IMG/VR virus record: IMGVR_UViG_2690316109_000010
DNA length: 36,079 bases
Source: a virus
Taxonomy: Duplodnaviria > Heunggongvirae > Uroviricota > Caudoviricetes
Direction: 5' to 3' (one strand)
The position numbers and the translations under genes were made by a program. Below the pieces are notes generated by a model. The model did no database searches. It was given only the letters and a program-made list of their open reading frames with translations, and had not been told where the DNA came from. Below, piece by piece: positions 24,338-25,541 of the stretch. Each line of letters starts with the position of its first letter. The first letter of the stretch is position 1.

Positions 24338-24341
24338 CTAA
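24338..24341. repeat. IS5 target site duplication CTAA (left)
   Basis: CTAA immediately precedes the left inverted repeat and is repeated at 25538-25541. Confidence 0.85.
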
Positions 24342-25537
24342 GGAAGGTGCGAACAAGTTCCTGATATGAGATCATCATATTCATCCGGAGCGCATCCCAG
24401 AGGGACATCATGAGCCATCAACTCACCTTCGCCGATAGTGAATTCAGCACTAAGCGCCGTCAGACCCGAAAAGAGATTTTCCTCTCCCGCATGGAGCAGA
24501 TTCTGCCATGGCAAAACATGGTGGAAGTCATCGAGCCGTTTTATCCCAAGGCGGGCAATGGCCGACGGCCCTATCCGCTGGAGACCATGCTGCGTATTCA
24601 CTGCATGCAGCATTGGTACAACCTGAGCGACGGTGCCATGGAAGATGCCCTGTACGAAATCGCCTCCATGCGCCTGTTTGCCCGATTATCCCTGGATAGC
24701 GCCCTGCCGGATCGCACCACCATCATGAATTTCCGCCACCTGCTCGAGCAGCATCAACTGGCCCGTCAATTGTTCAAGACCATCAATCGCTGGCTGGCCG
24801 AAGCAGGCGTCATGATGACCCAAGGCACTTTGGTGGATGCCACCATCATTGAGGCACCCAGCTCTACCAAGAACAAAGAGCAGCAACGCGATCCGGAGAT
24901 GCATCAGACCAAGAAAGGCAATCAGTGGCACTTTGGCATGAAGGCCCACATTGGTGTCGATGCCAAGAGTGGCCTGACCCACAGCCTAGTCACCACCGCG
25001 GCCAACGAGCATGACCTCAATCAGCTGGGTAATCTGCTTCATGGAGAGGAGCAATTTGTCTCAGCCGATGCCGGCTACCAAGGAGCGCCACAGCGCGAGG
25101 AGCTGGCCGAGGTGGATGTGGACTGGCTGATCGCCGAGCGTCCCGGCAAGGTAAAAACCTTGAAGCAGCATCCGCGCAAGAACAAAACGGCCATCAACAT
25201 CGAATACATGAAAGCCAGCATCCGTGCCAGGGTGGAGCACCCGTTTCGCATCATCAAGCGGCAGTTCGGCTTCGTGAAAGCCAGATACAAGGGGCTGCTG
25301 AAAAACGATAACCAACTGGCGATGTTATTCACCCTGGCCAACCTGTTTCGGGTGGACCAAATGATACGTCAGTGGGAGAGATCTCAGTAAAAACCGGAAA
25401 TAACGCCAGAAATGGTGGAAAAAATAGCCTAAATAGGCTGATTCGATGTGTTTGCGGGAAAAAAATCGGCCCAGATCCGAGAAATTTTAATCAGCGAGTC
25501 AGCTTGGGAAGAAATGACCTGCTTATTCGCACCTTCC
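24342..25537 (+). mobile_element. IS5: IS5 insertion sequence, complete
   Basis: Terminal inverted repeats ggaaggtgcgaacaag (24342-24357) and cttattcgcaccttcc (25522-25537), about 1.2 kb, flanked by a 4-bp CTAA direct repeat; encodes InsH. Confidence 0.95.
24410..25390 (+). CDS. insH: IS5 transposase InsH
   Basis: 326 aa, [40 protein letters not shown]..., recognisable as the IS5 transposase. Confidence 0.95.
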
Positions 25538-25541
25538 CTAA
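25538..25541. repeat. IS5 target site duplication CTAA (right)
   Basis: CTAA immediately follows the right inverted repeat. Confidence 0.85.

Follow-up and report, generated by a model that had tools for sequence, protein, structure and literature searches.

The window analyzed here, a stretch of 36,079 nucleotides, represents a lambdoid prophage of E. coli in which the late genes occupy the minus strand, and an insertion sequence (IS) lies between its gene for the Q antiterminator and its lysis genes. This locus raises the question of which element inserted, by which route it arrived, and whether it affects the prophage genes that surround it. The initial annotation had described the span from 24338 to 25541 as a complete IS5 with both inverted repeats, an intact InsH, and CTAA direct repeats. 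We recovered this structure in all its parts at these coordinates, while the name had to be changed from IS5 to ISKpn26. Taking all analyses together, we consider it very probable that the span represents a complete copy of ISKpn26 that inserted recently and by simple transposition at a CTAA sequence in the accessory interval that separates Q from the lysis genes, with little consequence for the prophage. The parts of the insertion are as follows:

24338 to 24341, no strand: left copy of the target-site duplication, CTAA, read from the sequence; genomes with an empty site have one CTAA
24342 to 25537, plus strand: ISKpn26 (IS5 family, IS5 group), complete, 1,196 bp, named by identity to annotated copies
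24342 to 24357, plus strand: left terminal inverted repeat, GGAAGGTGCGAACAAG, matching the right repeat at 15 of 16 positions
24410 to 25390, plus strand: transposase, 326 amino acids, opposite to the prophage late genes (ORF list, Pfam, and NCBIfam)
25522 to 25537, plus strand: right terminal inverted repeat, CTTATTCGCACCTTCC, identified by repeat pairing
25538 to 25541, no strand: right copy of the target-site duplication, CTAA, part of which, read on the minus strand, is the stop codon (TAG) of the DUF3927 gene

The span consists of the left CTAA, the 1,196-bp element, and the right CTAA, and it reads CTAA, GGAAGGTGCGAACAAG ... CTTATTCGCACCTTCC, CTAA. The terminal inverted repeats are 16 bp each, and the reverse complement of the right repeat is GGAAGGTGCGAATAAG, which differs from the left repeat at a single position. 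The direct repeat comprises 4 bp exactly, with no possible extension. Several properties place the element in the IS5 family, i.e., terminal 16-bp repeats with sequences as at the ends of K-12 IS5, a 4-bp duplication at a YTAR-type target (CTAA on both sides), and a DDE transposase of the IS5 type as identified using Pfam and NCBIfam. The transposase ORF is free of internal stop codons and frameshifts; the protein matches the Pfam models DDE_Tnp_1 (1.7e-35) and DUF772 (3.2e-21) and scores 366 bits on the NCBIfam model NF033581 (IS5 family transposase), for which the cutoff is 140. It is identical to K-12 InsH1 at 322 of 326 residues (98.8%), with four residues differing, and its coding DNA is that of WP_000019473.1 in a second E. 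coli genome (L003). Only one left and one right IS end are present in the 36-kb window, and we therefore rejected a composite transposon. With its ORF and both ends intact, and being identical to many dispersed copies, this copy is presumably competent for transposition.

When we searched with a 2-kb query, the top database matches were annotated as "IS5-like element ISKpn26 family transposase." The element is identical at 1,196 of 1,196 nt to an ISKpn26-annotated copy located between fliR and rcsA in strain CAVP761 (L003); the name ISKpn26 rests on the RefSeq (PGAP) annotation of identical copies, used as a proxy for the ISfinder reference. By contrast, alignment with the 1,195-bp IS5A of K-12 gave 92.2% identity (1,104 matches, 89 mismatches, and 5 indel positions), so that canonical IS5 is a close relative only. 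The differences are distributed unevenly. The ORF is 95.5% identical in DNA, with 44 differences, of which 37 affect third codon positions, while the 5′ and 3′ noncoding ends are 80.9% and 74.8% identical, respectively; divergence is, therefore, greatest in the noncoding ends and most pronounced at the 3′ end. K-12 IS5 (IS5A, insH1) and the element in the window share the family, the architecture, the YTAR-type target with its 4-bp duplication, most of the transposase sequence, and the terminal repeats except for an internal C/T position; they differ by 1 bp in length, in overall DNA sequence, and in the diverged noncoding ends. ISKpn26 was first named in Klebsiella pneumoniae and is now common in E. 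coli. The copy in the window shares with it the length, all nucleotides, the 16-bp terminal repeats, a duplicated target of 4 bp (CTAA or CTAG), and the transposase of WP_000019473.1, and the insertion site is the sole difference from the copies elsewhere. As judged from these alignments, the element is ISKpn26 and not canonical IS5, and the designation "IS5" is right at the level of the family. Care is advisable with elements called "IS5" in E. coli, which may be ISKpn26; the two share the transposase and have diverged noncoding ends.

The distinction bears on the regulatory effects that can be expected. At bgl, glpFK, fucAO, and flhDC, IS5 functions as a mobile enhancer. Schnetz and Rak in 1992 are said to have implicated the 3′ noncoding end of IS5 in the activation of neighboring genes, and Zhang and Saier in 2009 reportedly mapped this activation to the 3′ noncoding 177 bp, a region with a bend and IHF binding. 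Because the noncoding ends of ISKpn26, especially the activating 3′ end, have diverged from those of IS5, this behavior is not simply transferable to ISKpn26. A strict IHF consensus (WATCAANNNNTTR) was present neither in the element in the window nor in K-12 IS5.

During these comparisons, we noticed that an identical ISKpn26 interrupts rcsA (L003, fliR-rcsA) in many E. coli genomes, including strains NDM3 to NDM6. The rcsA copies are flanked by CTAA, and their right flank starts with CTAACAGT, as does the right flank in the window. We rejected a common origin of these insertions; because the left flanks differ, we judged the CTAACAGT resemblance to be due to chance and to have come to the fore because the matches were ranked by coverage.

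The left 24 kb of the window matches prophages with a full structural module (terminase, portal, prohead protease/capsid fusion, tail genes, J, Lom, and tail fiber), and the right 10 kb matches a Qin-like early region (dicA/dicC, hokD/sok, DUF968, and RusA). The element landed in the accessory ("moron") interval that extends from the Q antiterminator to the lysis cassette of a Qin/mEp460-like lambdoid E. coli prophage. From the Q side to the lysis side, this interval and its borders contain the following features:

26569 to 27390, minus strand: Q-family antiterminator, 273 amino acids (PF03589, 8.2e-55)
26488 to 26469, minus strand: terminator-like hairpin from a pattern scan, candidate tR′ (late terminator)
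26350 to 26425, minus strand: tRNA with a CAT anticodon, tRNA-Met by ARAGORN and tRNA-Ile in the RefSeq comparators
26169 to 26245, minus strand: tRNA-Arg(tct), from tRNA prediction and comparator annotation
25705 to 26058, minus strand: 117-amino-acid ORF from the ORF list, unannotated in the RefSeq comparators
25538 to 25669, minus strand: small membrane protein of the DUF3927 family, 43 amino acids (PF13064, 1.7e-27)
24082 to 24272, minus strand: STnc100 prophage small RNA (sRNA) (RF02076, 110 bits with a gathering score of 47; the match covers the model in full)
24030 to 24001, minus strand: promoter-like site (TTGAGC, 18-nt spacer, TATAAT; 10 of 12 positions), a consensus match only
23543 to 23971, minus strand: lipoprotein with a TolA C-terminal domain, 142 amino acids (PF06519, 2.4e-23)
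22997 to 23392, minus strand: second lipoprotein with a TolA C-terminal domain, 131 amino acids (PF06519, 1.3e-14)
22871 to 22854, minus strand: terminator-like hairpin from a pattern scan, just upstream of the holin gene
22775 to 22530, minus strand: P21-type holin (Pfam)
22530 to 22033, minus strand: lysozyme (Pfam)

The tRNA with the CAT anticodon is probably of the lysidine-modified Ile2 type. The two tRNA genes are located just downstream of Q, as are the ileZ-argN-argO-type tRNAs of Stx phages. The 117-amino-acid ORF between the tRNA genes and the DUF3927 gene has no match in Pfam or NCBIfam and may not be a real gene. The DUF3927 protein is WP_000562553.1 in the comparator genomes, and its homolog in phage JLK-2012 is annotated as TciB-like (tciB). 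That annotation refers to cell division inhibition or colicin resistance; the 43-amino-acid ORF in the window is hydrophobic. The two TolA-like genes, with a promoter-like site on one side and a terminator-like hairpin on the other, appear to form a moron with its own transcription signals.

To reconstruct the empty site, we deleted the element together with one CTAA and searched for the resulting 800-bp sequence in 5,426 complete E. coli genomes. The empty site was covered to at least 80% in 357 of these genomes; in many E. coli genomes, it was present as one uninterrupted piece with 800 of 800 bases identical. The insertion is also lacking in Escherichia phage mEp460_ev081, which has the empty site with 99.6% identity across its 800 bases. 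In strain KSC9 (L001), positions 22802 to 24341 and 25538 to 27500 of the window map adjacent to each other and overlap by exactly CTAA. Because the flanks are contiguous and 100% identical elsewhere and abut there with a single CTAA, these data support that the insertion arose by simple transposition with target duplication, as had been proposed. Based on the same alignments, we conclude that the CTAA duplication is a genuine target duplication and not a chance match. In our reading, ISKpn26 entered a CTAA target through ordinary cut-and-paste transposition of the DDE type and duplicated these 4 bp.

The occupied site, represented by a 2-kb query that includes both junctions, was covered to at least 80% in 0 of the 5,426 complete E. 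coli genomes. Similarly, in an exact scan, the 30-mer across the left junction was absent from the collections of viral, genome, and metagenome contigs. We inspected the three best partial matches, i.e., H31 (L004), H32 (L009), and H33 (L005), and all three have insertions elsewhere. H31 contains an ISKpn26-like element of 1,195 bp that is 98% identical and has a CTAG duplication, while H33 contains an ISKpn26 of 1,196 bp with a CTAA duplication; both elements have other flanks, and we rejected them as the same insertion in favor of independent ISKpn26-type insertions at other targets. H32 was rejected as well, as it contains a canonical IS5 between the two TolA-like genes. As far as the searched genomes and contigs show, the insertion is private to the source strain and could be used as a strain marker; as the source genome itself lies outside these collections, unsampled close relatives may share the insertion. 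Because the duplication is perfect, the element has zero differences from other copies, and no other occupied site was found in these searches, the insertion is probably recent; the identical empty site fits with this, and the initial annotation had come to the same view.

The insertion leaves the neighboring genes intact. On the minus strand, the target reads TTAG and contains the stop codon (TAG) of the DUF3927 gene; owing to the duplication of the target, this codon has been retained, and the coding sequence remains complete. On the other side, 69 nt separate the left IS end from the 5′ end of the match to STnc100, and the distance from the start of the element to the start codon of the 142-amino-acid TolA-like gene on the minus strand (23971) is 370 bp. 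The initial annotation had placed the element about 370 bp upstream of a TolA-like lipoprotein gene and between this gene and the tRNA genes and pR′; the coordinates agree with this distance and put the element between the TolA-like gene and the tRNA genes and Q. As the element landed in the 69-nt spacer between the DUF3927 stop codon and STnc100, no coding sequence or RNA gene is broken, and none of the annotated genes and RNAs is interrupted. In the empty-site arrangement, STnc100 is directly downstream of the DUF3927 gene, and this gene together with the 5′ part of STnc100 is conserved as a single block in several phages (query positions 195 to 496). Neither a scan nor inspection by eye gave a convincing sigma-70 promoter in the 69-nt spacer that separates STnc100 from the IS, and the same held for a clear promoter or a classical terminator of STnc100 itself. 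STnc100 is a known multicopy family of prophage sRNAs; it is present in 11 copies in EDL933, where it is transcribed in uninduced cells and where one copy was confirmed by Northern blotting (PMC5331693). In some Stx2 phages, STnc100 is located 75 nt downstream of stx2 (PMC12370729), and it has been reported to be related to PasD (bioRxiv 10.64898/2026.05.13.724894).

The interval between Q and the holin gene has repeatedly served as a landing place for IS elements in related prophages. In L004, the ISKpn26-like element of 1,195 bp with the CTAG duplication is located between Q-side genes and a TolA-like gene, and in L005, the ISKpn26 with the CTAA duplication is located ~100 bp from an STnc100-like segment. 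L009 contains two elements, i.e., the IS5 between the two TolA-like genes and an IS3-family element between a TolA-like gene and essD. An IS1A is present between the TolA-like gene and the DUF3927 gene in L010, and an ISCro1 (IS66 family) is present between the TolA-like gene and essD in L001. These recurrent, independent insertions fit with a permissive, nonessential region. In all four IS5-type insertions in the interval, including the one in the window, the transposase gene is antisense to the late genes, a bias that with n = 4 is not significant. A parallel is found in the cryptic prophage DLP12 of E. coli K-12, in which an IS5 is located within nmpC, between quuD and essD. DLP12 is lambdoid as well and resembles the window in that an IS5-type element occupies the accessory interval from a Q-like antiterminator to the holin; it differs in that the IS interrupts a porin gene, nmpC, and in that the prophage is defective, while no gene is hit in the window and the structural module looks full.

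With regard to the prophage, the most likely effect of the insertion would be little or none, with the transposase gene opposing late transcription. Q-modified RNA polymerase passes intrinsic and Rho-dependent terminators over tens of kilobases, a resistance that explains why terminators are tolerated within late operons. Once the prophage is induced, this polymerase should, thus, cross the 1.2 kb of the element. The TolA-like lipoprotein genes, with the promoter-like site upstream, appear to possess a promoter of their own. We infer little consequence because of this behavior of Q antitermination, the weakness of the minus-strand terminator-like patterns, and the promoter-like site before the TolA-like gene.

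We also considered other explanations for the arrangement and for its effect. IS5-family elements are multicopy in E. coli and are often collapsed or misjoined in assemblies, and the arrangement might, therefore, reflect an IS-mediated rearrangement, in which two copies joined unrelated flanks, or an assembly artifact. However, many genomes have the two flanks as one contiguous, uninterrupted stretch with 100% identity, and recombination between independent copies would not yield a pattern with a single CTAA at the empty sites; we assign next to no probability to this explanation. If the insertion were polar, it would block Q-dependent late transcription or impose Rho-dependent termination in the antisense IS RNA, and the TolA-like cargo genes, the holin, and the endolysin would be uncoupled from Q, as the initial annotation had suggested for the cargo genes and the lysis cassette, with lysis being defective or delayed. 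In favor of polarity are the position of the IS, which has the Q gene and a candidate late terminator (26488 to 26469) on one side and the lysis genes on the other, the 1.2 kb of untranslated antisense sequence that late transcription would traverse, and three weak minus-strand terminator-like hairpins in the IS at approximately 25439, 25333, and 25230. These hairpins, however, have 5 to 6 pairs and poor T tails, and the stronger hairpin before the holin gene (22871 to 22854) must be read through in every relative. Moreover, insertions of IS5, IS1, IS3-family, and IS66-family elements appear to be tolerated in the same interval of related prophages. Because Q-modified polymerase, as is well established, reads through intrinsic as well as Rho-dependent terminators, uncoupling from Q is unsupported and unlikely, and a polar insertion with a lysis defect is, in our view, very unlikely.

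Alternatively, the element could be a mobile enhancer that was selected for altered expression of STnc100 or the TolA-like genes in the lysogen. STnc100 begins 69 nt downstream of the IS, and the promoter-like site of the TolA-like gene follows at a distance of ~310 nt; moreover, IS5-type elements recur in the interval with the same orientation in 4 of 4 cases, and STnc100 copies are expressed in uninduced lysogens (PMC5331693). On the other hand, it is the left end, i.e., the transposase-5′ end, that faces STnc100 and the TolA-like genes, whereas the activating region of IS5 is its 3′ 177 bp, and over this 3′ noncoding part, ISKpn26 and IS5 share only 75% identity. In addition, our scan identified no minus-strand promoter-like site leaving the IS, the insertion was found in a single genome and shows no sign of selection or spread, and the shared orientation of four elements is not significant. 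We see a very slim chance that the element was selected as an enhancer. It is also conceivable, though unlikely, that the insertion splits a conserved unit of the DUF3927/TciB-like gene and STnc100; if STnc100 is normally made from, or boosted by, transcription through the DUF3927 gene, a prophage sRNA would have been uncoupled naturally in the source strain. With similarly low probability, IS5-type elements may favor one orientation in the interval from Q to the holin, antisense to late transcription, and such a preference would suggest selection against the polar orientation.

Under the preferred reading, a simple and recent ISKpn26 insertion with little consequence, one local effect is nevertheless plausible, namely, that STnc100 is now set apart from whatever is located upstream of it. 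For the study of STnc100 or of the TolA-like morons, the strain provides an insertion that arose naturally, at 69 nt from the sRNA on its upstream side. Otherwise, the locus represents a known element with known behavior at a new, strain-private site; this type of event is already known and ordinary, the annotation is correct yet routine, and nothing points to an unusual function.

We also made observations on other genes of the prophage. The two tandem small lipoproteins each combine a lipobox signal peptide with a TolA C-terminal domain. The upstream TolA-like gene is annotated as a partial tolA pseudogene in the RefSeq comparators, while here it is a complete 142-amino-acid ORF with a lipobox. 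We speculate that these proteins could act as soluble TolA-C decoys that interfere with the entry of Tol-dependent colicins or filamentous phages. Finally, the early region contains a sok antitoxin RNA at 29787 to 29961 on the minus strand (RF01794, 118.7 bits), which in comparator prophages is accompanied by a hokD-type toxin gene and which looks like part of a hok/sok type I toxin-antitoxin system.
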